A stretch of DNA of 64,000 bases from Glaciimonas sp. Lineage in GTDB: Bacteria; Pseudomonadota; Gammaproteobacteria; Burkholderiales; Burkholderiaceae_D. Shown in pieces: positions 8,209-45,608 of this stretch. The DNA lies in NCBI GenBank assembly GCA_012927585.1, contig JABBOY010000026.1:7408-71407 (forward strand), in the 5' to 3' direction. The notes below the pieces were generated by a model. That model did not search any database, was not told where the DNA came from, and was given only the letters and a program-made list of their open reading frames with translations. The first letter of the stretch is position 1, and the number at the start of each line of letters is the position of its first letter. Both the position numbers and the translations under genes were made by a program.

Positions 8209-8658
8209 ATGACCATCGTTGACAACAGAAAAGCTTTCCATGACTATTTTATTGAGGAGCGCTTCGAAGCTGGTGTCGTCCTGCATGGCTGGGAAGCCAA
8301 GTCCATACGCGCCGGACGGGTTCAACTCAAGGAAGCCTATGTGATTGTGCGTGACGGCGAGATTTTTCTGTTCGGCGCCCATATCAGCGCGCTATTAAGC
8401 GCCTCCACCCACGTCCACCCAGAAGCCTTACGCACACGTAAGTTGTTGCTGCATGCTGCCGAAATCAGTAAGTTGGTCAGCAAGGTCGAACGCTCCGGCT
8501 ACACTCTGGTGCCGATCAACCTGCACTTCGTGCGGGGACGCGTCAAGTGTGAAATCGGACTGGCTAAAGGCAAGAAGCTGCACGACAAGCGCGACACCGA
8601 GAAATCGCGCGATTGGCAGCGCGAGCAACAGCAAATCATGAAACAGAATTTCCGTTAA
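8209..8658 (+). CDS. smpB: SsrA-binding protein
   Basis: [33 protein letters not shown]. Confidence 0.97.
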
Positions 8659-8691
8659 GTAAAAACCATGACTCTACACGCTTTAAATTAA

Positions 8692-8756
8692 TAAAGGTGG
8701 GGTATGCCATAAAACATGGTATTGTCCGCTTTATTTTATTGACGTATATTTAATAC
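8692..8756 (+). repeat. AT-rich dispersed element copy 1 (GTAT-N20-CCGCTT-N21-ATAC)
   Basis: GTAT 8702-8705, CCGCTT 8726-8731, ATAC 8753-8756; between convergent smpB and SPFH genes. Confidence 0.6.
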
Positions 8757-8869
8757 ATATGCGTGTACATAAAAAATGCACCGAGACTGCTCGTCTGGCT
8801 GATTTGTATAAAAAATCAAATTAGCAGCCGTTTTGACACGGCTTCCAATCGCTAACGGTTAGTCCTCTA

Positions 8870-9796
8870 TCAGGATTTTTGCTGTGATTTAACGACTTGC
8901 AGAGCACTTGCAATCAAACTGCTGATATCGCTCAAATTTGCTGGAACAATAATCGAATTATTCGTCTTGGCCAAATTGGCAAAGGCGCTGACGTATTGCT
9001 CTGCCACTTTCAGATTCACCGCATCCGCACCACCCGGCTCCCGGATTGCGGCAGCAGTCTTGCGAATTGCATCTGCGCTGGCCTCGGCCAAGAAGACGAT
9101 CGCTGCGGCCTGGCCTTCCGCCCGATTAATCGACGCTTGTTTTTCGCCCTCAGACTTAGCTATCGATGCTTCACGCTCGCCGGTTGCGATATTGATCTGC
9201 TCTTGCTTGCGTCCTTCGGAAGCGGCAATCAAGGCCCGCTTTTCGCGCTCTGCGGTAATCTGCGCCTGCATTGAATGCAAAATTTCCTTGGGCGGGGTCA
9301 AATCCTTGATCTCGTAGCGCAGTACTTTTACGCCCCAATTTGAAGCCGATTCATCGATTGAGCTGACGACGCTCAGATTGATGTGCGCGCGTTCTTCGAA
9401 CGTCTTGTCCAGTTCCATCTTGCCAATTACGCTACGCAGCGTGGTTTGCGCCAGTTGCGACACGGCGTAAATATAATTTGAAGAACCATACGAAGCACGC
9501 ATCGGGTCGGTCACTTGAAAATACAGGATGCCATCGACTTCCAGTTGCGTATTATCTTTCGTGATGCAAACCTGACTAGGAACGTCCATCGGGATTTCCT
9601 TCAGTGAATGCTTGTAGGCGATGCGATCGATGAACGGCAAAACGATGTTCAGACCTGGCGCCAGCGTGCCGTGATACTTGCCAAAACGCTCGACTACCCA
9701 AGCATGCTGCTGCGGTACGACGTTGATGGTCTTGACGACAAAAATAATCGCCAGAATGAACAGGATGATGGAAATGCTGCTGAAATCAAAAGCCAT
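8870..9796 (-). CDS. SPFH/band 7 (QmcA/stomatin-like) protein
   Basis: N-terminal TM, VVERFGKY, ITKDNTQLEVDG, AEREKRA; start trimmed to MAFDF. Confidence 0.9.
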   Translation of the reverse strand: MAFDFSSISIILFILAIIFVVKTINVVPQQHAWVVERFGKYHGTLAPGLNIVLPFIDRIAYKHSLKEIPMDVPSQVCITKDNTQLEVDGILYFQVTDPMRASYGSSNYIYAVSQLAQTTLRSVIGKMELDKTFEERAHINLSVVSSIDESASNWGVKVLRYEIKDLTPPKEILHSMQAQITAEREKRALIAASEGRKQEQINIATGEREASIAKSEGEKQASINRAEGQAAAIVFLAEASADAIRKTAAAIREPGGADAVNLKVAEQYVSAFANLAKTNNSIIVPANLSDISSLIASALQVVKSQQKS

Positions 9797-9806
9797 GGTA
9801 TGTCCT

Positions 9807-10235
9807 TTATGGTACGGAGTTAGCGACAATCAAGTGACTGCCGCGTATTTCACGAATGACGAAAGCACCGGCAATTGCTACTGCGCCTGGCATCAGTTCA
9901 ATGTCCCACATGGCACCTCGATACATGGTACGCGCATGATTATCCTGCCATTGCTCGACATGCACGGTTTGCCCGATGTCGAGGTTGACATTCGGGTCAC
10001 GCCCGGTAGGCAGTTTGCGCTGTTTTCCAAAGCTGCTTTTACGCAATAAGAAAGTTGCGATTGCCCCCACGATCGCCGCAATCACCATTTGCAGTGGAAA
10101 CACAAAACCGGCCAGCGCTACTGCGCCGCCGGCTAGCGCGCCTAATGCAATCATCAGTAAATAAAATGTACCGGTGAATATTTCGGCAATGACGAGTATG
10201 CCCGCCATGCCAAACCAGGTCATCCAGTCAGGCAT
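9807..10235 (-). CDS. NfeD-family membrane protein (YbbJ-like)
   Basis: W-rich TM N-terminus, OB-fold with YRGAMW; conserved partner of SPFH gene. Confidence 0.85.
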   Translation of the reverse strand: MPDWMTWFGMAGILVIAEIFTGTFYLLMIALGALAGGAVALAGFVFPLQMVIAAIVGAIATFLLRKSSFGKQRKLPTGRDPNVNLDIGQTVHVEQWQDNHARTMYRGAMWDIELMPGAVAIAGAFVIREIRGSHLIVANSVP

Positions 10236-15360: not shown

Positions 15361-15426
15361 AAAATAGGGGGTATGACAAAAAACACTACTGATTCCGCAT
15401 ATATTAAATGAGTAACTGAAAATTAC
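15361..15426 (+). repeat. AT-rich dispersed element copy 2
   Basis: AAAATAGGGG-GTAT(15371)-N20-CCGCAT(15395-15400)-N22-TTAC; in lpxB-rnhB gap. Confidence 0.65.
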
Positions 15427-15444
15427 AGTATGGTGTATTGTCCG

Positions 15445-19519: not shown

Positions 19520-21862
19520 TTAGAACCCGGTACCCAGCTGGAATTGGAAATTCTGCTTCCGGTCGGTAGACGTGGCATTCATGGGTTTGCCATAACTTAA
19601 TTTCAGCGGACCAATCGGTGATATCCAGCTCAAACCGATGCCCACTGAGGTACGTAAATCCGAAGCACTGATCTTTTGCCCTTCTGCAAACACGTTACCC
19701 GCATCAAAAAAGGTAAACCAGCGCAAGGTACGGTCATTTCCCGAACCAGGAAATGGAAATTGCAACTCGGCATTCGCAATCAAGCGGGTTGAGCCGCCCA
19801 GAGATTCCCCGGTTACGCGATCAATGTTGGTTCCGACACCCAGCGAGGAGCCTTCATAGCCGCGCACAGATCCGATACCGCCGGCATAGAAATTTTTGAA
19901 AATTGGATACTTATTACCCCCTAATCCATGACCGTAATCAACTTCGCCATTCAATGCCAGCGTCATGGTACGGTTAATCGGCAGGAAGTATTGATCCTGA
20001 TATACGGCGCGGTAATAACCCAGGGTGCCGATCACTGACAGCTCGAGATTTGCGCGTTGATAGCGTCCCTTGTTGGGCGCTATCGCGCTATCGCGCCCGT
20101 CACGTTGCCATGCCGCGGTTAAGGGAAATGACGTTGTAGTAGCTTTCCCTATACCGGATGGATCGCCGTTATCTTTCACGAATTCCTGCCATCTGTCCGG
20201 GCTGCTTGCAAAAGTTTCAACTGCAGTTCGTTCTGCGCCGATGCCGAAAAATACGGTATCCAGTTCGGAGAATGGCACACCAAATCGTATACTGCCGCCC
20301 GAGGTTACTACCCGATAGTCGTAGGTATAGGTATCAGCCGGACGGGTTGTCCGATAAAACAGTTCATAACTGCGACTGACGCCATCCTTGGTGAAATACG
20401 GGTCGGTTTGTGACAAAGCTATCGTGCGATTGCGTTTGCTGGTGTTGACATCCAGCCCTATCGTATTGCCGGTGCCAAAGGCATTGGCTTGCTGGATGGA
20501 ACCTGTCAGCGTCAACTTCTCGCTACTGGAAAAACCGGCACCTAGTAGCAAATTACCAGTCGGCTTTTCTACCACCGCCATATTGATATCGACCTGATCG
20601 GTACTGCCGGGTACTTCCGGTGTTTCAATATTTACTTCCTTGAAGAAGCCGAGACGATCGACTCGATCCCGGGAAAGCCGGATTTTGGTGCCGTCATACC
20701 AGGCATCCTCAAATTGCCGGAATTCGCGGCGAATCACTTCATCACGCGTTTTTGTATTGCCGGCAAGGTTAATGCGGCGAACATAGACGCGCTTACCAGG
20801 ATCCAGGAAAATCGTCAGCGCGACTTCCTTTTTCTCACGATTAATTTGCGGATTGGCATTGACGTTAGCGAAAGCATAACCAAAGTTACCCATGCGTTCT
20901 GATATTTTCGCAGTGCTTGCCGTCAGTTTTTCGCCCGAATAGACATCGCCTTTTTTTAAAGTCAGCAGGGAATTAAATTCCGCTTCGCGGCCAAACATTT
21001 GACCTTCGATCTTAACGTCGGAGACGGTGTATTTTTCCCCTTCATTGATATTGATGGTGATGAAGATATCTTTTTTGTCCTGCGTGATCGAAACTTGCGT
21101 CGATTCGACCTGCATCTCGATATAACCACGATTCAGATAATAGGATTTCAGCGCTTCAATGTCGCCTGCCAATTTTTGTTTCGAATATTGGTCAGCTTTT
21201 GTGTACCAAGAAAACCAACCTGGTGTTGTCAGGTTTAATAAGTCCGATAATTCGCTGTCGGTAAACGCTTTATTACCGACAAAATTGATCTGCTTAATAT
21301 GGGTAATATCGCCTTCTTCCACTGCGAAATTGACTGTTACCCGGTTACGCTCGATCGGTGTGACGGTAGAAGTAATTTGAACCCCATATAAACCTCTGGA
21401 AAGATATTGGCGCTTTAATTCCTGCTCCGCACGATCCACTAAAGCCTTGTCGAAAATGCGTGATTCACCCAGGCCAATCTCTTTCAACGCCTTAGTCAGC
21501 ACTTCCTTGTCAAACTCCTTGGTTCCTGAGAACTCCACGCTGGCAATCGCAGGACGTTCTTCTACCAGGATGACTAGCACATCACCATCGACTTCAATAC
21601 GAACATCCTTGAAGAACCCGGTTGCATAAAGAGACTTGATCGCGGTTACACTTTTTTCATCAGTGAAAGTTTCGCCGACACGCACCGGAAGATAACTAAA
21701 TACAGTGCCGGCCTCAGTACGCTGTATCCCTTCTACCCGAATATCTTTCACCTTGAATGGCTCGATCGCCAGCGCGGATCCGGCACATAGGGAAAAAACA
21801 GCAATAGCGAGTAGATTTCGGCGAAAAACAGGAATGGAAAAACGCTCAGAATATAATTTCAT
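19520..21862 (-). CDS. bamA: Outer membrane protein assembly factor
   Basis: POTRA repeats (IRVEGIQR), FYAGGIGSVRGY, C-terminal FQFQLGTGF. Confidence 0.97.
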   Translation of the reverse strand: MKLYSERFSIPVFRRNLLAIAVFSLCAGSALAIEPFKVKDIRVEGIQRTEAGTVFSYLPVRVGETFTDEKSVTAIKSLYATGFFKDVRIEVDGDVLVILVEERPAIASVEFSGTKEFDKEVLTKALKEIGLGESRIFDKALVDRAEQELKRQYLSRGLYGVQITSTVTPIERNRVTVNFAVEEGDITHIKQINFVGNKAFTDSELSDLLNLTTPGWFSWYTKADQYSKQKLAGDIEALKSYYLNRGYIEMQVESTQVSITQDKKDIFITININEGEKYTVSDVKIEGQMFGREAEFNSLLTLKKGDVYSGEKLTASTAKISERMGNFGYAFANVNANPQINREKKEVALTIFLDPGKRVYVRRINLAGNTKTRDEVIRREFRQFEDAWYDGTKIRLSRDRVDRLGFFKEVNIETPEVPGSTDQVDINMAVVEKPTGNLLLGAGFSSSEKLTLTGSIQQANAFGTGNTIGLDVNTSKRNRTIALSQTDPYFTKDGVSRSYELFYRTTRPADTYTYDYRVVTSGGSIRFGVPFSELDTVFFGIGAERTAVETFASSPDRWQEFVKDNGDPSGIGKATTTSFPLTAAWQRDGRDSAIAPNKGRYQRANLELSVIGTLGYYRAVYQDQYFLPINRTMTLALNGEVDYGHGLGGNKYPIFKNFYAGGIGSVRGYEGSSLGVGTNIDRVTGESLGGSTRLIANAELQFPFPGSGNDRTLRWFTFFDAGNVFAEGQKISASDLRTSVGIGLSWISPIGPLKLSYGKPMNATSTDRKQNFQFQLGTGF

Positions 21863-29525: not shown

Positions 29526-29726
29526 GATTCGCGATTTTTCAAAAACTAGCTATTTGTAAAATAAGCTAGCCGGGTATTTTACCCTGATTTCCACTTATCT
29601 TTCAAGCGCCAGCCTTGTCCAATTGCACCAATGCCAAAAGAAGTCGATTGATTGTTTATGGCCTTACCGCAGTCTTCAGCAGTTATCCTATAGCGTTGGC
29701 AACCAAGGCGCTGCGCGCTCCATCCC

Positions 29727-30332
29727 ATGCCCCGTGAAAAAATCCTCATCCTGTGCGGCTTGCTGCTAATCGTCATCATGGCAATTTCGTTTAGTAATGC
29801 GTATGACCGTGCCACCTGGCTACTGGAAGTGGCGCCGGTGCTGATCGCATTGCCGATACTGGCAGCGACTTACCGCCGGTTTCCGTTGACGGGCCTGTTA
29901 TACGGTCTGATTTTCGTGCATGCACTGGTATTGATCGTGGGCGGCACTTATACCTACGCACGGGTGCCGTTCGGTTTCTGGATGCAAGACGTGCTGGCGC
30001 TGGAGCGCAACCCGTACGACAAGATCGGGCATTTCATGCAGGGTCTGGTGCCGGTGCTGGTGACGCGCGAGATCCTGCTGCACGGCTCTTATGTGTCCGG
30101 GCCCAGGATGACGGATTTTCTGTCGGCCTGCGTGGCACTGGCGATCAGCGCCTTTTATGAGCTGATCGAGTGGTGGGTGGCGCTGGCGATAGGGCAGGAT
30201 GCCGACGCTTTCCTCGGCACTCAGGGCGATCCGTGGGATACCCAGTCGGACATGTTTTTAGCGATGATCGGGGCGCTGGCAGGTCTGGCGCTGCTGTCGA
30301 GATTGCAGGATCGGCAAATGCGCTTGCTTTAA
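29727..30332 (+). CDS. DUF2238 (YjdF-like) inner membrane protein
   Basis: TWLLEVAP, YTYARVPFG, RNPYDKIGHFMQG, YELIEW, GTQGDPWDTQSDM. Confidence 0.88.
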   Translation: MPREKILILCGLLLIVIMAISFSNAYDRATWLLEVAPVLIALPILAATYRRFPLTGLLYGLIFVHALVLIVGGTYTYARVPFGFWMQDVLALERNPYDKIGHFMQGLVPVLVTREILLHGSYVSGPRMTDFLSACVALAISAFYELIEWWVALAIGQDADAFLGTQGDPWDTQSDMFLAMIGALAGLALLSRLQDRQMRLL

Positions 30333-30483
30333 ATCGGACTTGATGCGGCAGTGCCTGAATACTGTTCAAACGCCGCCAGCGCATCGGCCACATCAGCGGT
30401 GGACCGCCGCCCATATAGACCGCCATGCCCAGGGTTTCTTCGACTTCGGTGCGGGTTGCGCCGAGCTTTACCAGTGCCTGCCC
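30329..30483 (-). pseudogene. 3' remnant of a carboxymuconolactone decarboxylase (CMD/AhpD-like) gene
   Basis: Manual translation GQALVKLGATRTEVEETLGMAVYMGGGPPLM, then frameshift to ADALAAFEQYSGTAASSPI*; no 5' half. Confidence 0.75.
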
Positions 30484-30491
30484 GGCAAACT

Positions 30492-33293
30492 TTAACAGTG
30501 CAGATCAATCACATCCCGCACTCCGGCAGCATCTCCCACCACCACATCCCAGGCCCAGGTGCCAAAGCCACCATGCGCATTGACCGCTTCGACCCATTGA
30601 TCCAATGCTGCGCGCTTGGCTTGGTCTTGCGGTGAATCCACGCCTTTGATCTCCAGCACCAGCGTTTTTCCTGATGCATAGCGCATCAAAAAATCGGGGA
30701 TATATTTACGCTTGGAGCCATTCCACAGGTACAAGATGCTAAAGCCCAGGTGATCGTTCTTGGCCCACGCTGCCACTTTCGGGTGGGTCTCCGCAATATT
30801 CGCCGCGTATTTCTCCCAGCCACTGTCCACCACAATATGACTAATCTGCGAGTGCTGCGTTGGCTCGGCAATCCGGGTGGTGTACCAAATTCGCATGTCG
30901 CGGGTAGAGCCAATCGGTCGGTCGCCATCAAACACCGGCTCCAGCCGCTCCGTATTCTGCTCCATCACGTATTGCATCAGATGCTGGGTAATCAAGTCGA
31001 TGTGCAGCGAGAACAGAATGCGTTTGCGCAGCGGGTCCTGATGAAACAGCGAGGGGATGTCGATCTTGTTCGATGTCAGAAATTGTTCCACCAGCCGCAC
31101 CAGTTGGAACAGCAGATATTCCCGCTGGCCCTTGAACTGCTCCTGCAGCAAATCAAACGCACGCTGTGCTGCCTTGAATACCAGCCGCTGCAGGCGGAAC
31201 TCTTCAGGCAGTTTTTCCAGGTCGATGGTCCGAACCTGGCTCCAATCGGCCGCCCCGCCCAGCGCGGGCGCAATTTCAGCGCGGATGGCCATGCTTGCCG
31301 GGTTGATCACCAAAGGCGCCACCTTGCTCCAATCCACCACCAGTTGCGGGCGCACCACTTGATCCACGCGCAACACATTGGGCCATTTGATTTCATACAC
31401 GTTGCGCGCGCTCAGCGACTCCACCTGCGTGCTGGGCTTGGGTGGCGGCGGGCTCATGCCGCTCTCGCCTGGCCGCAGAGCAATGGACAGCGGCACGCCA
31501 AACACGTTGACAAATTCCGGCACATACAAGCCCTGTTCATCCATGTCATAGGAAACGCGGCGCAGTCCCCGACCAATCACCTGCTCACACAAAAGCTGAC
31601 TGGTGAAAGCGCGCAGCCCCATGATGTGCGTCACATTCTTGGCATCCCAGCCTTCCGACAGCATGGCAACCGACACCACGTTTTGCAGGTCTTGTCCGGC
31701 CTGGTCGCGCTTGCCGACGGTGTCGACCAACTCGCGCAGCAACTGTTCTTTCTTCATGCCGCGCAGAGTTTCTTTGCGCGTCTCCGGGATGCGGGCGGCC
31801 TCCACAATCTGGCGCAGCCGCAGTTCGTAATCCTTGTCGGCAGTGGCGGTTTCGCCAAGCTCGGCCTTCTCCAGCACCTTGGAATCGACCCGAAAAGTTC
31901 TGGCGGGATAGTGCAATTCCGGCCAGTGGGCATAGCCCTTGGTGAAGAAATGCTCTACGCGGGCCGCAGTCTCAGTGCGGTTGCACACCGTCAGCATCAC
32001 AGGCGGTGATTGGTGACCTGCCTCTTTCCAGCTTTTTGCCGTTGCAAGCCAATCCGCGCCCAGCAGGGTGTAAGCCTGCTGCACCAGTGCTGGCAAAGCC
32101 TCATGGGCTTCGGCCTTGCGGTTCAAATCTTCGGCCACCTCCGGCTCGCGATACAAGTGATACAGCTTGGGGCGCAACGTCTGCGCATTCGGCATGGCAT
32201 CGTCGCGCACCACCACACGCGGGGTTTTGACCAACCCCGACTCAATAGCATCATTCAGACCGAAATCGGACACCACCCAAGTGAACAGTCCGGCCTCCGT
32301 ATTGGTGCGCCCGGTCGGAGCGAACGGCGTGGCCGACAAATCAAAACAGCGGGCAATCCGACGTGTCTTGTGGATGCGGTCCAGCCCCTCCACCCAACGG
32401 GTCGCTTCATCCAGGTCTATCCCCAGCGCCTCGGCTTCCGCCTTGCTGATCTTCACATCGGCCGGTGTGCGATAGGCATGGTGCGCCTCATCGTTTATGA
32501 CCAAAATATCTTTGTGGATTGCCAGCTTGCCCAACACCCTCCTGGTGAAAGCTTCATCGCTTTCAAAACCTTTTTTCACCACAGAACGGTCTTGCGCCTT
32601 GAGCGGCATCAATGTGTGCCAGTTCTCGATCAGGATATCGGCCCGGTTCAGGTTTTGCCGCATGGCCTCGGATGGGCACAGCACAAAGCTGTCGTAGTAA
32701 TTGGCTTCATGGCCGGGCATCAGAACTTGCAGCCGGTCTTTGACGGTCAGGCCCGGCGCCACCAGAAACACCGCACTGGAATACTTGCGCGGCGATTTTG
32801 GGTAGGTCAGCGCATTCAGCACTTGCCAGGTGATGATCATGGCCATCACGGTCGTTTTGCCGCTGCCGGTGGCCATCTTGTTGCACAGCCGCTCAAACGC
32901 ACCGCCGTCGCCCTGCACGCTGATGCCCTGACGGTATTCCGCCTGCGCTTCTGTGTACCAAATCAAGGTTTCAATCGCTTCGAGCTGGCAGAAGTAAAAC
33001 GGATACTGCCGCCCGGACACGCGCTCAAGATCCCACCAGTGATCCAGCAACTCATTGGTGACCGCCGTCACGCCGGGCCAGCCGTCCGCGCGCCACGCGG
33101 CCACCCGTTGGCGAATGTCGTCCACCAGCGGAATCGACACCTTGCGCCGGGTATTCTCGCGCGTGTCTATAATTTCGTAGCCGGCCGGGCGACGCGTGCC
33201 CACCAGACGCAGCGTGCGGTCGGTGTTCTCGGCCCAGTGGCGCTGCGGCTCGATGAAAGGCGAGTTGATGATCAGAGAAGTAGGAGCGGTCAT
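30492..33293 (-). CDS. res: Type III-like restriction helicase-nuclease (Res; BPTD_3080-like)
   Basis: SF2 motifs KMATGSGKT, DEAH, LSATP, SEGWD, EQVIGRGLRR; C-terminal YIPDF...LEIKG PD-(D/E)xK. Confidence 0.88.
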   Translation of the reverse strand: MTAPTSLIINSPFIEPQRHWAENTDRTLRLVGTRRPAGYEIIDTRENTRRKVSIPLVDDIRQRVAAWRADGWPGVTAVTNELLDHWWDLERVSGRQYPFYFCQLEAIETLIWYTEAQAEYRQGISVQGDGGAFERLCNKMATGSGKTTVMAMIITWQVLNALTYPKSPRKYSSAVFLVAPGLTVKDRLQVLMPGHEANYYDSFVLCPSEAMRQNLNRADILIENWHTLMPLKAQDRSVVKKGFESDEAFTRRVLGKLAIHKDILVINDEAHHAYRTPADVKISKAEAEALGIDLDEATRWVEGLDRIHKTRRIARCFDLSATPFAPTGRTNTEAGLFTWVVSDFGLNDAIESGLVKTPRVVVRDDAMPNAQTLRPKLYHLYREPEVAEDLNRKAEAHEALPALVQQAYTLLGADWLATAKSWKEAGHQSPPVMLTVCNRTETAARVEHFFTKGYAHWPELHYPARTFRVDSKVLEKAELGETATADKDYELRLRQIVEAARIPETRKETLRGMKKEQLLRELVDTVGKRDQAGQDLQNVVSVAMLSEGWDAKNVTHIMGLRAFTSQLLCEQVIGRGLRRVSYDMDEQGLYVPEFVNVFGVPLSIALRPGESGMSPPPPKPSTQVESLSARNVYEIKWPNVLRVDQVVRPQLVVDWSKVAPLVINPASMAIRAEIAPALGGAADWSQVRTIDLEKLPEEFRLQRLVFKAAQRAFDLLQEQFKGQREYLLFQLVRLVEQFLTSNKIDIPSLFHQDPLRKRILFSLHIDLITQHLMQYVMEQNTERLEPVFDGDRPIGSTRDMRIWYTTRIAEPTQHSQISHIVVDSGWEKYAANIAETHPKVAAWAKNDHLGFSILYLWNGSKRKYIPDFLMRYASGKTLVLEIKGVDSPQDQAKRAALDQWVEAVNAHGGFGTWAWDVVVGDAAGVRDVIDLHC

Positions 33294-33847
33294 GCGTGCG
33301 TCAATTCCTGGATACTGCGCATCAAGACCCGAAAACTGTTTGACTTGTTTTGGGTCAGGTCGAGATGGGGCGCAATTTTGCGGGCGCCCTCACGCTTTTG
33401 ATAGGTTGGAATCAGTCGTCTGATTTCCGCCGAAGGACTGCCCAACAGGTCAGGCACACGGTATTTGGCGCGGTTAGCGTTCGCAGCAAGTGCGGGGCGC
33501 TCGAAACCGGCTGCGACGGCAGGCCAATCCCCAACGAAGAAACTTTCGAGTTCCTTGCACACGACTCTCACGACGGCGTCAGGCTGTCCAGCCTGGACAC
33601 ACAAGTCGCGCAAACGTGCCTTGATCACCACGCAGTCCCCGCTATCTTGATCCCGCATTACAATAAAATAGCTATTCGGACGCAGCCAGCGTTTCATGCG
33701 CAGGACCAATCGCTTTTCCAAATCCTGCTTGCCCTCGAAAACCAAAAAATGCGGTGTGATATGCGCAGGCAGCACCCGGGGCAAGACTGCCTGCAGAAAA
33801 TCCTGGGCAGAAGGCTCTTCCAAAAAAAATACCAGATGCTCGATCAC
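33290..33847 (-). CDS. DUF4276-family TOPRIM-like protein
   Basis: GTG start overlapping ATPase stop (GTGA); LVFFLEEPSA, VMRDQDSGDC (DxD), ELESFFVGD. Confidence 0.78.
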   Translation of the reverse strand: MIEHLVFFLEEPSAQDFLQAVLPRVLPAHITPHFLVFEGKQDLEKRLVLRMKRWLRPNSYFIVMRDQDSGDCVVIKARLRDLCVQAGQPDAVVRVVCKELESFFVGDWPAVAAGFERPALAANANRAKYRVPDLLGSPSAEIRRLIPTYQKREGARKIAPHLDLTQNKSNSFRVLMRSIQELTHA

Positions 33848-35037
33848 GGATTGGCTCCCGCAAACAAGCCCTGTTTCCACAAATAGCCCATTTGGTCGCC
33901 CTCAGCCATATAGACCTTGAGCTGTTCGTCATCCCGTGCGCGATGTGCGGTGGTGTAACCGTCTTCCTTGACCAGCCAGAACACCTCATCGAGCCCCACT
34001 GCGTTCAAAAAGTCGGGTGAATGTGTGGTGACAAAAACCTGTCCGCCACGCTGCGCATAAGAGCGGAACTCCTCGGCCAAATCCCATAGCAAAGACGGAT
34101 AAAGCTGATTTTCAGGCTCCTCGACGCACAGCAGTGGGTGCGGCGCAGGATCAAACAGCAACACCAAATAGGCCAGCATCTTGATAGTACCGTCGGAAAC
34201 ATAGCGCGCCAAAAAAGGGTCCTCAAACGCGCCATCCTGAAATTTCAAAAGTACACGGCCTTCTTCAGTCGTTTTCGCCTCTACCTTGGTGACTCCCGGC
34301 ACGCGAGACTGTAGCCGACTAAGAATGTCCGTGAATATTTTATGATGATGATTGAACAGGTATTCCACCACCAGCGAGAGGTTTTCACCCTCGCGCGACA
34401 AGTGTTCTGCATAGCCCGCTTCCACCTCCGGGCGAGCCCGGCTAATGTGAAAGTCCGACAAATGCCAGTTTTCGATCAAATTTCCCAGCGCCACCACAGC
34501 GGGGAAACGCTCAAACTGCGCCAAACCCTTGATGGCAAGAATATCCGGGCTTTTGAGAGTTTGCTGTTCGCGCTTGAGATCCTTTTCGTCCTTAACAGAG
34601 TCAAGCTCATTGGTAACTGCTTCGCCTACGCCATTGGAAAAGTCAAGAAAATGCCAAGGTTGGCCCCGGCTACCGCGCCGGTATTTCAGAATTTCCCGGG
34701 CGACAACCGGGCGCCCCTTTAACTCGTCAATATGCAGCTCGTAGGTGATGAGTTGGCTGCGGCCACTCGACAACACCGTGCGCAGCTTGATTTCGATCTC
34801 AATCGGCCCGCTTGTGCCCCGGCTGCGTACCTCGTTCAAGCCGCGACTGCCACCCAGGCGCCCCAGTGCTGCGGTCAAGTTGGTCGTCATCGCGTCGCGC
34901 AAAAACGCAAACACCGAAAACAGTGTGCTCTTGCCGGTTCCGTTGGCCCCCACCAGCACGCAAAAGCGGGGAATATCGCGTAATGTCACATCCTTGAAGC
35001 TGCGAAAATTCTTCAGGCGTATGGCTTCGATTTGCAT
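33844..35037 (-). CDS. ABC-type (AAA_21-like) ATPase
   Basis: GANGTGKS Walker A, VSDGT signature, LCVEEPEN Walker B, VTTHSP H-loop; no TM segments. Confidence 0.88.
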   Translation of the reverse strand: MQIEAIRLKNFRSFKDVTLRDIPRFCVLVGANGTGKSTLFSVFAFLRDAMTTNLTAALGRLGGSRGLNEVRSRGTSGPIEIEIKLRTVLSSGRSQLITYELHIDELKGRPVVAREILKYRRGSRGQPWHFLDFSNGVGEAVTNELDSVKDEKDLKREQQTLKSPDILAIKGLAQFERFPAVVALGNLIENWHLSDFHISRARPEVEAGYAEHLSREGENLSLVVEYLFNHHHKIFTDILSRLQSRVPGVTKVEAKTTEEGRVLLKFQDGAFEDPFLARYVSDGTIKMLAYLVLLFDPAPHPLLCVEEPENQLYPSLLWDLAEEFRSYAQRGGQVFVTTHSPDFLNAVGLDEVFWLVKEDGYTTAHRARDDEQLKVYMAEGDQMGYLWKQGLFAGANP

Positions 35038-35040
35038 GGT

Positions 35041-38000
35041 TCAGTTCTCCAGTCTCATAACCTTCAACGACTCAATCCCCCGGTCGTCCACAATCTTGAC
35101 TGCCACAGTATGGTTGGTGCCGGCTTCGAACGGCAGCGACACGGTGCCAACAAAGTGCGACAACAGGTCTTCGTCGAGTTCGGCGCGGATGTTCTTTTTC
35201 AGCTTCAGCCAGCCGCCGTCCTTGCCCGCCATCGGAAAGAAAACCTGGTGCGGAAACAGCGAGCGCCCGTCATAGTCGGTATCCAGCGACCAGGCGGCAA
35301 TCTTGCCTTTGCCGCCCGAGACCAGTTCGCCCTTGGCGGTATCGAAATAGTCGAAGCCATTGACCTCGACTTGCCACAGCCCGGCTTTGGTTTGCGACAA
35401 CAGCACATCGGGCTGTCCCATGAGCCAGAAACTCTGGTTGCTGGAACGCGCCTTTTTCAGATCTTCGGTCAGCATATCCGGGTTCATCTGCGCCTTCAGC
35501 GCGGTGATGCCTTTTAATGCATCGATATCCTTTGCTGCCTCCGGGTCAAACATGAAGGCGCAGAACACGATCATCTTGGGTAGCGGAAACAGTTCGCCCG
35601 CTTCGCGCAGCGCATGCTCGACCTGGCGCTGCTCCAATGCGCCGTGCTCCGGGCCGAAACTCACCACCACGCGTTCGCCACTGTCGAGGTGACCGCTGGC
35701 GTGCAGGCACGTAGTGCCGGGCAATACCTCCAACTCGGCAAATTTCAGCATCTGCCCGCCTTTGCCGCGGATGCCGGTTTTCAGCAATTCGTCGCGCCAG
35801 CCATGCTGCCGGCTGGTCGCGCCGCTGCGGGCAATGGCCAGATCGGCCGCCATCGCAGTGGGCGCCTGCGTCGCAGGCTGGTCCAGCGACAGCACGGTGG
35901 GGAAAGGCACCGCCTCCACCGTGAACGGGCCGGTAATGCGCAGCTTGTCTTTGGCCTTCTCCGGCTGGTCGTACAAGGTTTCGTTGTCGGCCTGCGCGGC
36001 GATCGAGCGATCCATCTCGGCTTGCATTTTCTGGCGCGCAGCGTGGAAACCGTCGAACGCTGCCCGGGCGCTGGCAGGCCAGTCGGGCGGGTAATCGAAC
36101 GGCACTTCCCACTCCAGCAGCGCCACGCCTTTGTTGCCGATTGCCAGCTTCTGGCCTTTGCGTGCGCCGTCAAGCACTGCAAGAGGCGCTGCGGGCGGCG
36201 CTGCTGCCAGTCCGGCGTTCAGCTTGGCCAGCGCGGCGTCGATGGCCGGATGCAGGCGTTCGTAAATTGCATCGATATCGGGATTGTTGGCGATGCTTTT
36301 GAGCGTGACGTGCGGCACGGTCTTGTAGATGAACCCGCCTTTCAAGCCTTCGTGCGGATAGCGCAGCGCGAAGTAATCGAAGCTGGCCGTCATCAGGCGC
36401 TGCTTGGCCAGCGTGATGGCGACGCGCGAAGTGTCGCAGGTGATCCAGCGCCGGCCCCATTTTTCGGCGACATAGGCGGTGGTGCCGCTGCCGCAGGTCG
36501 GGTCGAGCACCAGGTCGCCAGGGTCGGTGGTCATGAGCATGCAGCGTTCGATGACTTTTGTGGTTGTCTGAACAACGTACGACTTGTCTTGTTCAGCCGT
36601 TCCCATCGTGTCTGACCACAAGTTGCTCAAAACAAATGCGGGGAAGTCATCTACAAACATTTTGTAGTTGACGAATTCTTTGGTTAATACAAGCCGATTG
36701 CTCGCGATTAACCGGTTCATTCCCAACTTCCCAGTTTTCCACCCACCTTTACGGATTTGAATTGGGCGGCCCTTTAAGTTGAAATCGAAGGTTGTTGATT
36801 CGCTAGCAGTTTCTGAGGTTAGTGGACCTCCTAAAAAGGCCCGACAGTCCTTGGAAACGAGACCAGAGTCTTCCTTTTCCAGTTTGGACATTGCTCTCAC
36901 CCGGCCATCTGCTTCCTGAATTTGGTTGTATCTGGCACCGCCGCCGATTCCAAGTGCTTTTGGTAAGTAGAGTCGATTAAATTTTGCTTTTTGCTTGGAA
37001 CAGCAATACCAAACGACATAGTCGGATACGTTGTCAATAAATTGCTCGCCCATGCCACCGGTCTTCTTTGTGGTGATGACACTTAGAAAATTATCCGATC
37101 CAAAAATTTCATCTAGCATTTCCCGCACATGATGCAAGTTTTCATCCGAAATCTGCACAAACACGCTGCCGGTCTCACTCAACAAATCCTTCGCCAGCAA
37201 CAACCGGTCGCGCAGATACGTCAGATACGAGTGTATGCCCAGCTCCCAGGTGTCCCGAAACGCCTTGATCATTTCGGGTTCTTGCGTCAGGTCGGCATCG
37301 CTGCGGTCCTTGACGTCGCGCTTGTTGGTGAACGGCTGGAAATTGCTGCCGTACTTGATGCCATACGGCGGGTCGATGTAGATCATCTGCACCTGCCCGG
37401 CCATGCCTTCTTTTTGCAGCAGGCTGTTCATCACCAGCAGGCTGTCGCCGGCCACCAGGCGGTTGGCCCAGCCGCGGTCGTGCTTATAGAAATCCACTGC
37501 GGAGCGCAGCGGCAGGCTCTCGAACGGCGCTTCGAACAAGCTGGCCTGGAAGCCGCCGCTGGCGGCCTTGCCGTCTTTCTGGCTGCCCTGGCGCTTGCTC
37601 ACCGCCGACAGGATGCTCATAGCGTCGATGCGCTCGTGCACGTGCAGGCTGACGGTATCCACCTCGAAACTGGTGCGCTCGGCCTTGCCGCTCCACTGCA
37701 GATAGGGCGAGCCAAGGCGGCGCAACTGCTCCAGCGCGCTGCGCATGGCGGCGGGGTCGTCACCGGCCAGCGCGTCGTCGATCAGCTTTTCCGCTCCGGC
37801 ACGAGCCGAGTCAAACTGCAATGCCGGGTCCAGATGCGGGTCGTAATTCCAGACCGTCTTGGGCGTTTCGGGATCGCTGGCTTCGTTGACCAGGCCCACT
37901 TCAGGGTTGTTTTTGCGGCGCTCGGAATGGCGGTAACTCAGCACTTGCGGCTCGCCGGATGCGGCCTGCGGCGCTGCTCTGAGCTTGCGCGGCTTGGCTG

Positions 38001-38307
38001 CTGGCTTGCTTGCAAGTTGGCTTGCGAACAGGTCGGTCGTCGTGACTTCGGCTTTCAGCGCAAAGTCGGGCCTGGCCTCACCGGCAGCGCGCGCGGTGGA
38101 GCCGCCACGTCCCTTGCCCTTGATGATGCTGCCTGACGCCAAAAGAGCATCGCGGGCAATATGCAGCTCTTCCTCGGAGGCATCCACTCCATCAACGTTA
38201 CAGGCAAGTTGCAACAAGGATTTATTGCCGATGAATGAACAATCCTCTGGAAGCAGTTTTAAGATAATCGCTTGCAGCGCACGCTGACGAGTCTCGCCCA
38301 TGGTCAT
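35041..38307 (-). CDS. mod: Type III-like DNA adenine methyltransferase (Mod, beta class)
   Basis: YIDPPY motif IV precedes VLDPTCGSGTT motif I with a TRD between; start at 38307 or 38301. Confidence 0.9.
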   Translation of the reverse strand: MTMGETRQRALQAIILKLLPEDCSFIGNKSLLQLACNVDGVDASEEELHIARDALLASGSIIKGKGRGGSTARAAGEARPDFALKAEVTTTDLFASQLASKPAAKPRKLRAAPQAASGEPQVLSYRHSERRKNNPEVGLVNEASDPETPKTVWNYDPHLDPALQFDSARAGAEKLIDDALAGDDPAAMRSALEQLRRLGSPYLQWSGKAERTSFEVDTVSLHVHERIDAMSILSAVSKRQGSQKDGKAASGGFQASLFEAPFESLPLRSAVDFYKHDRGWANRLVAGDSLLVMNSLLQKEGMAGQVQMIYIDPPYGIKYGSNFQPFTNKRDVKDRSDADLTQEPEMIKAFRDTWELGIHSYLTYLRDRLLLAKDLLSETGSVFVQISDENLHHVREMLDEIFGSDNFLSVITTKKTGGMGEQFIDNVSDYVVWYCCSKQKAKFNRLYLPKALGIGGGARYNQIQEADGRVRAMSKLEKEDSGLVSKDCRAFLGGPLTSETASESTTFDFNLKGRPIQIRKGGWKTGKLGMNRLIASNRLVLTKEFVNYKMFVDDFPAFVLSNLWSDTMGTAEQDKSYVVQTTTKVIERCMLMTTDPGDLVLDPTCGSGTTAYVAEKWGRRWITCDTSRVAITLAKQRLMTASFDYFALRYPHEGLKGGFIYKTVPHVTLKSIANNPDIDAIYERLHPAIDAALAKLNAGLAAAPPAAPLAVLDGARKGQKLAIGNKGVALLEWEVPFDYPPDWPASARAAFDGFHAARQKMQAEMDRSIAAQADNETLYDQPEKAKDKLRITGPFTVEAVPFPTVLSLDQPATQAPTAMAADLAIARSGATSRQHGWRDELLKTGIRGKGGQMLKFAELEVLPGTTCLHASGHLDSGERVVVSFGPEHGALEQRQVEHALREAGELFPLPKMIVFCAFMFDPEAAKDIDALKGITALKAQMNPDMLTEDLKKARSSNQSFWLMGQPDVLLSQTKAGLWQVEVNGFDYFDTAKGELVSGGKGKIAAWSLDTDYDGRSLFPHQVFFPMAGKDGGWLKLKKNIRAELDEDLLSHFVGTVSLPFEAGTNHTVAVKIVDDRGIESLKVMRLEN

Positions 38308-38459
38308 TCCCTGAATAATGTATTGAACCCGAATTTCGGCAACGATGGTAACAGTCTCTGGCGGGGAAGTTGTCAAAAAATTTCCACTGTGCAAATAGCG
38401 TATTTTTAATCACACGCGTAACCAATGTTACGCAACGCATTATGGTAAAAAACAATGTC

Positions 38460-38663
38460 CACGAAATACACGAAAGGCACGAAAAAAATCGGATGCAAGC
38501 CGCAATTTTTGTCCGATCCAATTGCGCTGTCTTCAAAAAAAATACAGTATATTTTACCTACGCAATAAATATATGCGGAAAATGCCATAAAAATGACGAT
38601 ACTCCTCATTTTATGAAAAACACCGGAGTGTCAGGCCGGTTCGCGCTTTTCGTGTCTTTCGTG
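38460..38663. repeat. 204-bp element bounded by 24-bp inverted repeats built from 9-bp CACGAAA units
   Basis: CACGAAATACACGAAAGGCACGAA (38460-38483) vs reverse complement of 38640-38663 CACGAAAGACACGAAAAGCGCGAA: 21/24 identical. Confidence 0.75.
38547..38612 (-). repeat. AT-rich dispersed element copy 3
   Basis: Minus: AAAATGAGGA-GTAT-N20-CCGCAT-N22-ATAC. Confidence 0.7.
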
Positions 38664-38686
38664 AACCAGTGCGTAAGTTCGGCATC

Positions 38687-38770
38687 GTAGGTCGGGTTAG
38701 CGGCTTCATCGCGTAACCCGACATTTGCGGCTAAAAGAATGTCGGGTTACGCTACGCTAACCCAACCTAC
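38687..38770. repeat. GTAG-type REP doublet (REPIN), family B
   Basis: GTAGGTCGGGTTAGCG-N-CGTAACCCGAC plus inverted unit ending CCAACCTAC. Confidence 0.85.
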
Positions 38771-38792
38771 TAAAAACCGTTGCAATGTTTGT

Positions 38793-39353
38793 TCAGTCCA
38801 GCACGCAGAGCGCGCCGTAAGCGATTTGATGCGCGCTGCCGACTGCAACGGCAGCAATCTCTTCCAGCGACCGCTCTGACGAGCAAGCCAGCGACAGGCG
38901 AATGATGCCGGCATGGCAAAGCACGATTGCGGACTCAAACGGCAAGCGTGCCAGATCGGCATGGAAGGTGTGTACCCGTGTGATTACTTGCAGCACGCTT
39001 TCGCCGCCGCCGGGGCGGTAATGAATCAAATCTGCGGCCCAGGCGTCGATTTCATTGCGAGCGATTGCATCCCAGGAACGCATTTCCCAGCCGCCGAAAT
39101 CCATTTCCGCCAAACGCGCATCGAACTGTACTGCAGCGCCGCCGCGTGCTGCGGATAACTGCTGCGCCAGCGTCGCGCAACGCAATAAAGGGCTGCTGAA
39201 GATCGGTGTTGCCGGCGGCAACGCTTGCAGTTGCGGCAGCAATGCCGCCAGCGTTGTGGCTTGTTCCTGGACTGAAACCGTCAAGTCACTGCGGCCGTAG
39301 CACATTTCGGGCGCGACCTCAGGCCGAGGATGGCGGATCAGATAAATGCGCAT
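38793..39353 (-). CDS. cobC: Histidine phosphatase, alpha-ribazole phosphatase-like
   Basis: LIRHPRP, SSPLLRC, EMDFGGWE, GGES, CHAG; downstream of cobS. Confidence 0.82.
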   Translation of the reverse strand: MRIYLIRHPRPEVAPEMCYGRSDLTVSVQEQATTLAALLPQLQALPPATPIFSSPLLRCATLAQQLSAARGGAAVQFDARLAEMDFGGWEMRSWDAIARNEIDAWAADLIHYRPGGGESVLQVITRVHTFHADLARLPFESAIVLCHAGIIRLSLACSSERSLEEIAAVAVGSAHQIAYGALCVLD

Positions 39354-41384: not shown

Positions 41385-41556
41385 CGATTCCGGCTCGCTC
41401 TGCTTGAGAAGTGCATAACATCAGTTAAGTAATACCGGCAGACGGCTAGTGTAGGCAAGCTGAGCAAGTACGTCAAACTGCAAATACAGATGCGGCAATG
41501 CGTTATCCTTGCGCATTGAAGCCAGCGCCAGCCCTCATACCGACCAAACTCTTGCC

Positions 41557-42414
41557 ATGAAAAATCCGACAGGCTATTACAGCCGGCAATACAATGCGCG
41601 CGCCATGATTCCCGAGCATTCCCGCATCTTTACCCGCTGGATCCACGATTCGGCCCATGTGCGGCGCACCAAACTCGGCCTATACGATCTCCCTTATGGC
41701 GAATCGGCGGGCGAACGACTGGATTTTTTTCCAGCCAGGCGAGGTGGAGCAGCACTGCTGGTATTCATCCACGGCGGCTGGTGGCGTTCGCTGGACAAGA
41801 GCAATTTTTCCTTTATCGCCCCACCCTATCTGGAAGCCGGATTCAATGTCGCGCTGCCGAATTACACGCTAGCGCCGCACGCCACTATTGAAGACATCAC
41901 TCGCCAGCAGCTGCGCGCACTGGCCTGGCTATACCGACGCGCCGAACAGTACGATTTCGACCCGCAACGGATTGTCGTTGTCGGCCACTCTGCCGGCGCG
42001 CATCTGGCGGCGATGATGATGGCCGCCCTCTGGCCGGTATTCGACCCGGAACTACCGGTAGACCTGATCAAGGGCGGCGTGCTGTTGTCCGGTATTTATG
42101 ACCTGAAGCCGCTGCTGCAGGCCGATTTCGTCAATACAGATTTGCAACTAAGCGCGCCACGCGCCGCCATGCTGTCGCCAGCCTGGATGCCGCAAGCGCA
42201 CCAAACCCCTTTCCTGAGTGCAGTCGGCGGCGGTGAATCGAATGAATTCAAACGGCAAACCGCGCTGATCGACACAGCCTGGAAAACCAGCCACCTCGGC
42301 AATATCGCGCTAGCCAGCGAAAACCACCTGACCGTCTGCGACGCATTCGCGACGACCGGCCACCCGCTGTTCGAGGCCGTCGTGAAACTCGTGGCGGGAC
42401 TGAAAACGCGTTGA
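41557..42414 (+). CDS. Alpha/beta hydrolase (arylformamidase-like)
   Basis: FIHGGWWRSLDK, GHSAGAHL, catalytic His in ENHL. Confidence 0.85.
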   Translation: MKNPTGYYSRQYNARAMIPEHSRIFTRWIHDSAHVRRTKLGLYDLPYGESAGERLDFFPARRGGAALLVFIHGGWWRSLDKSNFSFIAPPYLEAGFNVALPNYTLAPHATIEDITRQQLRALAWLYRRAEQYDFDPQRIVVVGHSAGAHLAAMMMAALWPVFDPELPVDLIKGGVLLSGIYDLKPLLQADFVNTDLQLSAPRAAMLSPAWMPQAHQTPFLSAVGGGESNEFKRQTALIDTAWKTSHLGNIALASENHLTVCDAFATTGHPLFEAVVKLVAGLKTR

Positions 42415-42445
42415 AAAATTTCTTAAAAATTAAATACATACCATT

Positions 42446-42511
42446 GTATTTTTGCAATCCGCAATTAAAATATGCGGAACACCCCATGTTTTCTTGCATA
42501 CTCCATCAAAA
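42446..42511 (-). repeat. AT-rich dispersed element copy 4
   Basis: Minus: GATGGA-GTAT-N20-CCGCAT-N22-ATAC; between convergent genes. Confidence 0.7.
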
Positions 42512-42548: not shown

Positions 42549-43802
42549 CTACAGCACTAAGAAGAAAAGCGCCGCCACACTCGTTGGCAATAGTGCTCCC
42601 AGCAACAGACCGCCAGCACCGATCGACGCATCATTGAAGCCGTTGCGCAGCAATGCCACGCCGGCAGGATTGGGGGCGTTTGCAATCACGGTGAGGCCGC
42701 CGCCGGCCACAGCGCCGGCAACCAGCATGTACTGGGCTTGATTGGACATTCCCTCGATCAATGAACCCAGATAGGTCAGCGCCGCATTGTCCGTAATGGC
42801 GGTCAAACCCAGTGCGCCAAAGAACAACGCGGTCGGCTCAAGACTGGAGACAATCGGCTGCAGCCACCATTGTTGCATCCCTCCCAGAACCACCAAACCG
42901 GCAAGAAAGAAACCGACCAGCAAGCCCTCTTTCAGTATCAGCGGAGTTTGGTATTGTGCATAGGCTTGGGTAAATCCCATGAAAAACAGGAAAAGCCCGA
43001 CGAACACCACCGGATGATGCGCAGAAATGACGACGGCGACCAGGAACAACAGATGAATCGCACGCACCAGCCAAGGCACTGCGAGTTCCGTCGTTGCGGC
43101 GTGATCCTGCTTTAAATTGCCGACGTGGCTGCGTAGCAAAAAGGTAATGACTGTTGCGTTGACAATGACCGCGAGACAGGCTTTCCAGCCAAAATGGGTT
43201 GCCATGAAAAGACTATCCCATTGCCAGGTGGCGGCCACCATTAGTACCGGCGGCGCGGCAAACGAGGTTAAGGTGCCACCGATGGACACGTTCACGAAGA
43301 GCACGCCGAGAGCGCCGTATTTCAGCCATTCTGGAATCCCTTGCCGAAAAACCTGCGGCGCCAAAATCAGCGCTGCCAGCGTCATGGCGGCAGGCTCCGT
43401 AATCAGCGAACCGATCAGAGGTACCAGCGCCAAACCAAGCCAGACGCTTGCGACAGCGGAATTTACCGGAACCAGCGCCGCAATCGCGGCAACCAGTCCT
43501 TTCACCGTATCCAAAACCGGCCTCGACGCAGCCACCACCATAACGACGAACACGAACATGGGTTCCGTATATTGGCGCGATTCCGCGTATTCAACGGCCT
43601 GCGTTGCGCCCACCGCCAGCGCCATTATGACCAGCAGAATAAAGGCCCAAAATCCGAAGACCACTTCGATTTCGCCCAGCAGATGAAACAAGCCGGCGTG
43701 TTTGGAATGGCGATCGGCAAGACGTTCAAAATATTTTGCGGCAAAAGTATGAGCCAGCGCGATAGCAAAAAGAATAACGGCAATAATATTAATGTTGTCC
43801 AT
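42549..43802 (-). CDS. Putative Na+/H+ antiporter (DUF1504-like)
   Basis: Multi-pass membrane protein, GEIEVVFGFW, ITEPAAMT, TDNAALTY, ANAPNPAG. Confidence 0.75.
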   Translation of the reverse strand: MDNINIIAVILFAIALAHTFAAKYFERLADRHSKHAGLFHLLGEIEVVFGFWAFILLVIMALAVGATQAVEYAESRQYTEPMFVFVVMVVAASRPVLDTVKGLVAAIAALVPVNSAVASVWLGLALVPLIGSLITEPAAMTLAALILAPQVFRQGIPEWLKYGALGVLFVNVSIGGTLTSFAAPPVLMVAATWQWDSLFMATHFGWKACLAVIVNATVITFLLRSHVGNLKQDHAATTELAVPWLVRAIHLLFLVAVVISAHHPVVFVGLFLFFMGFTQAYAQYQTPLILKEGLLVGFFLAGLVVLGGMQQWWLQPIVSSLEPTALFFGALGLTAITDNAALTYLGSLIEGMSNQAQYMLVAGAVAGGGLTVIANAPNPAGVALLRNGFNDASIGAGGLLLGALLPTSVAALFFLVL

Positions 43803-44732: not shown

Positions 44733-44797
44733 AAAATAGGGTGTATCACGATTTTTATGGCATTCTCCGCATATTTACATTGGCATTCTAAATATAC
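44733..44797 (+). repeat. AT-rich dispersed element copy 5
   Basis: AAAATAGGGT-GTAT(44743)-N20-CCGCAT(44767)-N21-ATAC. Confidence 0.7.
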
Positions 44798-44960
44798 CCA
44801 TAGCTATACGGGCATCCGTCAAATTATCATTTCAGCGCGCTTATCTGCTCCTGCGTCCCCACTACCTTCCTTTTTTCGTGGAAAGCGTCTTCCCCCATAA
44901 TGGGCACGCGTAACATCAGTTAATCAATTATTTCATCAACTTACCCAATTCTGGAATCCC

Positions 44961-45608
44961 ATGCTAATCATCACCATCAAACAAGGCAAAGAAAAAAGCC
45001 TGCTGGAAAATCGCCAGCCGTGGATTTATGCCTCTGCGGTTGAGCGCGTCGATGGCAAACCCGAAGAGAAAATGAAATCAGGCGCGACGGCGCTGGTGCG
45101 ATCCTCTTCCGGGCAATTTCTGGCGCGCGCCGCCTGGAGCCCGAAATCGCAGATTCGGGCTCGCATCTGGAGTTTCGATGAAAACGAGCCAATCGACCAT
45201 GCGTTGGTCAAGCGCCGCGTCAAGACAGCCGTCGCCGCACGCAACGGTGCCGCCAACGGCAAAAAGACCGCGCCAAATCATTTGATACACCTCATTCTGG
45301 GCGAAGACGACGGTCTACCTGGGCTGGTAGTTGACTGGTTTGGCGGCCAGCAAGGTTATCTGGTGTGCCAGTTTCAGGCTGCTGGCGTGGATGCCTGGAA
45401 GATCCCCATCGTGCAGGCCCTGATCGCCGCAACCGGCTGCCCGAACGTGTACGAACGCGCCGATGCACTAGTGCGCAAGGGCGAAGGCTTGCCGGTCACA
45501 AATGGCATACTGGCCGGCGACGAACCACCGGACGAAATGCTGTTCACTGAAAATGGCATGCGCCATGCACTCAACATCAAGACTGGTAAAAAGAGTAATT
45601 TCAGATAA
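44961..45608 (+). CDS. RlmI-like protein: PUA and middle domains only, no methyltransferase domain
   Basis: PWIY, SPKSQIRARIW, EDDGLPGLVVD, CPNVYERAD; stops where the SAM-binding domain would begin. Confidence 0.75.
   Translation: MLIITIKQGKEKSLLENRQPWIYASAVERVDGKPEEKMKSGATALVRSSSGQFLARAAWSPKSQIRARIWSFDENEPIDHALVKRRVKTAVAARNGAANGKKTAPNHLIHLILGEDDGLPGLVVDWFGGQQGYLVCQFQAAGVDAWKIPIVQALIAATGCPNVYERADALVRKGEGLPVTNGILAGDEPPDEMLFTENGMRHALNIKTGKKSNFR

Follow-up and report, generated by a model that had tools for sequence, protein, structure and literature searches.

What is the short AT-rich sequence that lies between two convergent genes near the start of this stretch, and why does it recur, with three anchors at fixed distances, in other intergenic gaps? 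In the present study, this question was followed from the window, by which we mean the whole stretch of 64,000 nucleotides (contig C8, positions 7408-71407), to the draft assembly of Glaciimonas sp. to which it belongs (G000; 4.17 Mb, 54% G+C, 42 contigs) and to its relatives. A preliminary description had listed seven copies of the pattern GTAT-N20-CCGCAT-N21/22-ATAC in the window. At E<0.1, a profile built from the genome finds all seven in the window and adds none, and the strict pattern itself matches exactly at 4 places there (0.00 in 100 shuffles). The details of that description were also reproduced: the first spacer is 20 nt in all seven copies and the second 21 or 22 nt, an ATG stands at spacer positions 11-13 in five of the seven, and three copies have a one-base deviation in an anchor (CCGCTT at 8726, TTAC at 15423 and GTAC at 57690). 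The count of copies between convergent genes had to be raised from two (8702 and 42446, both of which do lie in such gaps) to three, since 62380 lies in one as well. The copies are listed here by their profile boundaries; the focal copy, for which the profile runs over 8699-8768 on the plus strand, is given with its lead-in and its parts.

8689-8768, plus strand: focal copy, subtype A, between the convergent ORFs 8209-8658 (plus) and 8870-9829 (minus)
8689-8698: AT-rich lead-in of the focal copy
8699-8705: GGGGTAT of the focal copy
8711-8714: A-tract of the focal copy
8726-8731: core CCGCTT of the focal copy
8753-8756: ATAC of the focal copy
8765-8768: GTAC of the focal copy
15367-15438, plus strand: copy between lpxB and rnhB, in a 108-nt gap, 7 nt past the lpxB stop codon
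38544-38605, minus strand: subtype B copy with a T-tract and the right end AAAATATAC, at the edge of a restriction-modification island
42434-42505, minus strand: subtype A copy between the convergent ORFs 41509-42414 (plus) and 42549-43802 (minus), with an orthologue in the relative G002
44739-44803, plus strand: subtype B copy upstream of the ORF 44961-45608 (plus), identical in G002
57690-57755, plus strand: weakest copy (profile E=1e-5), with GTAC for GTAT and the right end ATACTCCATAGTATAT, between the ORFs 56148-57626 (plus) and 57954-58364 (plus)
62376-62448, plus strand: subtype A copy between the convergent ORFs 61762-62364 (plus) and 62454-63143 (minus)

The element is 75-85 bp long and so exceeds the pattern first described, with AAAAATA-GGGA before GTAT and N7/8-AGTAT after ATAC as extra ends. 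The full unit reads AAAAATA-GGGAGTAT-N4-A5-N8-TTTCCGCAT-N7-TTGCG-N5-AAAAATAC-N7/8-AGTAT, and the consensus of the genome copies is aaAAAAAtA-GGGAGTAT-gcc-AAAAA-cAtggca-TTTT-CCGCAT-ATATTTA-TTGCG-n5-AAAAATAC-a-n6-AGTATAt. It consists of 75% A+T, in a genome of 54% G+C. Among the strict genome copies the first spacer is constant at 20 nt and the second has a length of either 21 nt (60 copies) or 22 nt (176 copies); with these lengths GTAT and ATAC are 52 bp apart from start to start, which makes about five helical turns. Four blocks stand at fixed helical phase, namely AAAAATA-GGGAGTAT, the A5 tract, TTTCCGCAT(-N9-TGCGG) and AAAATAC-N8-GTAT, and the spacers of different copies are close to random sequence. 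Two dyads can be recognised in the blocks. The first is CCGCA-N9-TGCGG, of which the right half is weaker, and the second is AAATAC-N8-GTATTT.

Three subtypes are distinguished by their tracts and ends. Subtype A (~75% of copies) has the A-tract and the right end ATAC-N7/8-AGTAT, and its two ends differ. Subtype B (~12%, or ~41 of 340 anchored copies) has a T-tract and terminal inverted repeats of ~21 bp (TTTCATAAAAATAGGGAGTAT ... ATACTCCAATAAATATGGAAAT). In subtype C (~10 copies) the left module is inverted (AAATATACTCCC-N27-CCGCAT), and over the family this module is therefore found in both orientations. The genome contains the word GGGAGTAT 151 times, compared with 28-36 occurrences of control words; 131 of the 151 are intergenic, 120 are within profile-defined elements and ~10 more belong to subtype C. 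The 12 partial profile matches are subtype C or truncations; no IS lies inside any of them, and insertion of IS elements into copies was rejected as their cause. A palindrome of GGGAGTAT at the 3' side of the glutamate dehydrogenase gene was considered as an operator and rejected, as it is an ordinary bidirectional terminator.

Some side observations concern the surroundings of the copy at 38547. It is contained in a larger unit (window 38470-38670), the inverted ends of which consist of 9-bp units of the CACGAAA type (TTCACGAAAGACACGAAAAGCGCGAA ... TTTTTCGTGCCTTTCGTGTATTTCGTGGA); a subtype C copy at C18:118505 is flanked by a similar run, CACGAAAAG. It also adjoins a GTAG...CTAC REPIN, with GC-rich repeats at window 38620-38790 (read on the minus strand), e.g. 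GTAGGTTGGGTTAGCGTAGCGTAACCCGAC. Over the genome, such GC-rich GTAG...CTAC REP/REPIN repeats (elsewhere GTAGGGCGGGTGCAACCCGCGC) are often in the same intergenic gap as the AT-rich element, and they are a separate repeat family. In addition, the ~9.2 kb at window 29623-38796, which include a restriction-modification/ATPase cassette, replace ~950 bp of unrelated sequence in G002, where a different copy, of subtype A, is present. With repeats at its borders, this segment is a variable island.

The preliminary description had expected hundreds of copies in the genome, and this proved correct. The 4.17 Mb contain 236 exact matches to the strict pattern and ~390 copies by an iterated nhmmer profile, and a reversed-pattern control gave 0 matches in 41 genomes. 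By our gene calls, which are crude (longest ORFs resolved greedily; 3820 genes, 88% coding), 116 copies are in convergent gaps, 100 in tandem gaps on the strand of the genes, 106 in tandem gaps on the opposite strand, 47 in divergent gaps and 18 within called ORFs. When gaps of at least 90 nt are considered, 30% of the convergent, 21% of the tandem and 12% of the divergent ones are occupied. No gap holds more than one copy, and the smallest distance between two copies is 398 nt. Copies stand in any orientation and at any distance relative to the neighbouring genes, with no preferred distance to start codons, and they are often found 1-27 nt from a stop codon. The density is uniform across all large chromosomal contigs. 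Two contigs have zero copies, C17 (88 kb, 60% G+C, foreign-looking; 8.2 expected) and C37 (35 kb, 58% G+C; 3.3 expected), and these are probably plasmid, ICE or recently acquired DNA. Plasmid and phage collections contained nothing matching the element. The orientation of copies follows the GC skew weakly (rho 0.15), with 57-63% agreement in the sense of a leading-strand bias.

With regard to neighbouring copies, it was also observed that consecutive ones have the same orientation in 207 cases and not in 150 over the genome, and that among those less than 3 kb apart the left (GGGAGTAT) ends face each other 15 times and are arranged oppositely 5 times. At C29:33235-33535 there is a 100-aa zinc-ribbon fragment, by eye similar to the N-terminus of an IS1595-type transposase, which is flanked by two copies 398 nt apart with their left ends inward.

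The family is narrowly distributed. In a scan of one genome per species, the strict pattern was recurrent in Herminiimonas sp. CN, 'Glaciimonas sp. KJC.1', Undibacterium spp. and several Oxalobacteraceae/Burkholderiaceae MAGs, and elsewhere there were scattered single chance matches. All six genomes of the genus have 23-170 strict copies each. Of 151 genomes and 64 genera of the bacterial family searched with a sequence-only covariance model, 21 and 11, respectively, have the element, and outside this family the model gave one marginal match among 121 genomes of the order. In both searches, the number of copies counted per genome had an upper limit (29 or 37). The element is restricted to a subclade of one Burkholderiales family, the Oxalobacteraceae (Herminiimonas, 'Glaciimonas', Undibacterium and relatives). 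The genome paper of Minibacterium massiliensis (PMC1950954) and full-text motif searches gave no description of the element, although one may exist beyond the literature that could be searched.

Within this subclade the copies are conserved in place. Four of four syntenic window sites are also filled in G002, a close relative with 96% identity in the 780-aa gene at 19520-21862 (a putative bamA judged from its neighbours). For a wider comparison, foreign loci with the element were collected whose two flanks map to one place in G000, and G000 also carries the element at 51 of these 55 orthologous sites. The shared sites include those of Undibacterium and those with flanking sequence that is 71-80% identical, and orthologous copies are of the same subtype. 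The identity per position was determined in 30 orthologous pairs with flanks less than 91% identical, as follows.

GGAGTAT, CCGCAT, AAAATAC and GTAT: identity 0.93-1.00
A-tract: identity 0.8-0.97
spacers: identity 0.33-0.55
surrounding intergenic DNA: unalignable

Since a pair was included only if its anchors were intact in the foreign genome, the divergence of the anchors may have been underestimated, by a factor of two at most, and the difference between anchors and spacers is thus not explained by ascertainment. Shared blocks of only 6-8 bp make gene conversion implausible. With both discounted, intact anchors next to drifted spacers at the same place indicate that the anchor blocks are under purifying selection at each site.

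Furthermore, the copies are spaced more evenly than expected. In the null model, copies were assigned at random to eligible gaps of the same contig and gap class, with gap length as an optional weight. The coefficient of variation of the inter-copy distances (median 7.2 kb) is 0.725, against 0.92 ± 0.044 in the null (z about -4.4). Both short and long distances are depleted: 10.9% are below 3 kb against 22% in the null (z -5.6), and 3.9% exceed 25 kb against 7.6% (z -3.3). At most 1 in 1000 simulations reached any of the observed values. Alternatively, the even spacing could be left over from target immunity during transposition, or from neighbouring copies interfering with one another, and not be a sign of domain function.

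In the first alternative to be weighed, the family is a selfish repeat of REP/MITE type with no host function, and its copies are relics of an old burst tolerated in intergenic 3' regions. The intergenic, 3'-biased placement is typical of such repeats, and the ~21 bp terminal inverted repeats of subtype B agree with it. So does the copy between lpxB and rnhB, which sits in a formerly coupled pair. In ~22 element-free genera these two genes abut or overlap, and in G000, G002, G019 (genus g15) and G045 (genus g41) a copy follows 7 nt after the lpxB stop in the same orientation; it is conserved in G002, G003, G004 and the genera g15 and g41. The element-bearing genera g16 and g19 have no copy at this junction. 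As this comparison indicates, the copy was inserted once, long ago, into the operon junction and has been retained since, and together with the inverted repeats of subtype B it points to an ancient MITE-like spread. The idea of an old non-autonomous mobile element, put forward in the preliminary description, is hence kept for the origin of the family; the copies, however, are the element itself and not target sites of another one. At the focal copy, an orthologue is present in G002 and G003 and absent from G004, which is without a ~170 nt segment including the element relative to G000 and G003. This indel may be counted in favour of a selfish repeat, and its length is not that of the element.

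A tolerated relic, however, would be expected to decay uniformly, yet its anchors have remained 93-100% identical where spacers and flanks are saturated, and even spacing with a deficit of long gaps would be unexpected for it. The retention of 51 of 55 sites across species also speaks against it. Recent mobility is not supported, as the four syntenic window sites are common to G002, those 51 of 55 sites are shared, spacers are near-random and C17 has no copy; recent copies are likewise lacking on foreign-looking DNA and on plasmids and phages in the collections searched. Neither an autonomous partner nor a flanked transposase was found: in G000 no target-site duplication and no autonomous IS with the same ends were noticed, and between the 12 closest copy pairs there are housekeeping genes and one IS1595-like fragment, with no RAYT-flanked arrangement there. 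A cognate gene between close inverted pairs was rejected, as the genes there are housekeeping ones. Overall, we regard a selfish repeat with no function as unlikely.

A small probability, too, is left to the explanation that the element acts on transcription or mRNA at the ends of transcription units, as a protein roadblock, an unconventional terminator, an attenuator, or an RNase or mRNA-stability site. Its enrichment at gene 3' ends and in convergent gaps, often close behind a stop codon, is in agreement with this, as is an AU-rich transcript whichever way round it is read. In addition, canonical intrinsic terminators are rare in this genome, where a hairpin followed by a T-run is found at ~12% of 3' ends; this figure does not differ between ends that have the element and those that do not. 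An intrinsic terminator or a substitute for one was rejected because the element has no hairpin and leaves the terminator frequency unaffected. No column pair of the alignment has mutual information above 0.1, and RNAalifold predicted 0 pairs. In ViennaRNA the two strands have the same modest MFE z-scores, the top pair probability being 0.29, and the complementarity of the arms within a copy is about that of permuted arms from different copies. The seven window copies matched nothing in Rfam at the gathering threshold or at E<=10. With no fold, covariation or Rfam match, the reading as an RNA element was rejected. The copies are oriented at random with respect to transcription (100 against 106 in tandem gaps), which would be intolerable for an RNA motif. 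Both lpxB and rnhB are on the minus strand, so that the copy at 15367 is transcribed as the reverse complement, and RNA polymerase must read through this intra-operon gap, which argues against a strong terminator or roadblock. The element acts as double-stranded DNA and not as RNA.

As a separate observation from the Rfam search, the sole family present in the window is a Guanidine-II (mini-ykkC) riboswitch at 54143-54189 on the plus strand (39.7 bits; gathering score 32).

It is very unlikely that the element is a site for a recombinase or transposase, either with a Xer-like core (CCGCAT-spacer-TTGCGG) and accessory arms or as a preferred target of IS110 type. The chromosomal dif on C39 is ATTCGCATAATTTATATTATGTTAAAT, ~48.4 kb from one end (minus strand), and its XerC arm resembles the element core CCGCATAT, with CGCATA in common. 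The core dyad CCGCA-N9-TGCGG, the occurrence of the left module in both orientations and the variable island that adjoins the copy at 38547 can be added in favour of such a site. On the other hand, the XerD arm TTATGTTAAAT is absent from the element, and ~390 active sites would scramble a chromosome whose synteny and element positions are stable. At short range, direct pairs of copies are no scarcer than inverted ones, and no copy split by an IS is among the partial matches.

Finally, it is extremely improbable that the element is the promoter or operator for a very large regulon under an alternative sigma factor or a global regulator, for although the fixed spacing of the blocks is promoter-like, with CCGCAT 17-18 bp upstream of a (T)AAAAAT stretch and CCGCATAT resembling the sigma-32 -10 motif, the sigma-70 geometry reaches at best an average of 4.7 of 9 and is present in neither orientation, promoter-like sites are not above shuffles, occupancy is lowest in the divergent gaps, which contain promoters, and highest in the convergent ones, no orientation or start-codon distance is preferred, and the flanks downstream of the element are not conserved. 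Readings as sigma-70, sigma-54 and sigma-32 promoters were rejected on geometry, in part by reasoning from the consensus. Each of the four explanations fails at least one test.

Among the known systems, the REP/BIME repeats of Enterobacteria and the REPINs of Pseudomonas are like the element in having hundreds of short intergenic copies at 3' ends or between operon genes, in either orientation, and in being inherited vertically. BIMEs are thought to dock host proteins, namely gyrase, IHF and Pol I. The element differs from them in that it has no imperfect palindrome, stable hairpin or GTAG, its anchors being GTAT and ATAC, and in that it is never clustered or tandem and has its blocks at fixed phase with free spacers. 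Thus it shares with that class the hundreds of 3'-biased intergenic copies and lacks the palindrome or stem-loop with compensatory changes. The MITEs, such as the Correia elements of Neisseria and ERIC/IRU, have the same size range and hundreds of copies, and the terminal inverted repeats of subtype B, the one insertion at an operon junction and a possible take-over for host functions are MITE-like. In contrast to MITEs, most copies (subtypes A and C) are without matching ends, and the copies are old, orthologous across genera and evenly spaced, with saturated spacers, intact blocks and no IHF consensus; an IHF site was rejected, as this consensus is absent from all seven window copies.

The sites of MatP (matS), ParB (parS) and SlmA/Noc and the KOPS resemble the element as dispersed, selected, sequence-specific motifs in duplex DNA with a non-random chromosomal arrangement. 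They are 8-16 bp long, usually palindromic or strand-skewed, present in tens of copies (KOPS apart) and regionally restricted, whereas the element is an asymmetric composite of 75-85 bp with ~390 copies, a uniform distribution and a strand bias of 57-63%. A role of matS/parS type, as first suggested, is not supported in that form: the element, at 75 bp, is not short, it is asymmetric and not palindromic, and it is uniform over the chromosomal contigs and not regional, with a weak strand bias.

The reading that we favour, and hold tentatively, is that these copies form an ancient double-stranded DNA family, most likely derived from a MITE, which would now be a domesticated, phased protein-binding platform with a probably architectural role. 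Selection on phased contacts in duplex DNA, and not recent copying, had been proposed in the preliminary description, and this is supported by the lack of RNA structure, the identity of anchors (93-100%) against that of spacers (33-55%) and the even spacing. A duplex motif with phased blocks, dyads and A-tracts, selection per site, free orientation, exclusion from promoters and foreign-looking DNA and an even spacing fit a docking platform. Under this proposal, the conserved blocks would be the contact points of one or more sequence-specific proteins. The two dyad sub-sites suggest dimeric binders, and the A-tracts suggest bending or wrapping of the DNA. The resulting nucleoprotein complex may serve chromosome architecture where transcription units end, either as a barrier between topological domains or as a site where supercoils are handled, in analogy to the roles suggested for the enterobacterial BIMEs, as docking sites of gyrase or IHF, and for barriers between supercoil domains of ~10 kb. 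The spacing of the copies is near the scale reported for such domains in bacteria. The bias to 3' ends could be mere exclusion from promoters.

A more specific form of the docking-platform proposal is possible, and we consider it rather doubtful. In this form, the copies would be evenly spaced putative docking sites for a lineage-specific complex, acting as topological or insulator boundaries of units of ~7-10 kb, and the domesticated MITE would be kept by selection in several genera. If the boundary reading is true, these bacteria would possess a hard-wired system of domain boundaries at the ends of their transcription units. Dispersed bacterial repeats are usually portrayed as hairpin REPs or as young MITEs, with function argued by analogy. 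Here a repeat family is shown, from sequence alone, to be kept at its sites block by block across genera. The family may give a handle on whether bacteria encode sites for chromosome domains and supercoil management in their DNA, and it would offer a clean case of an exapted MITE.
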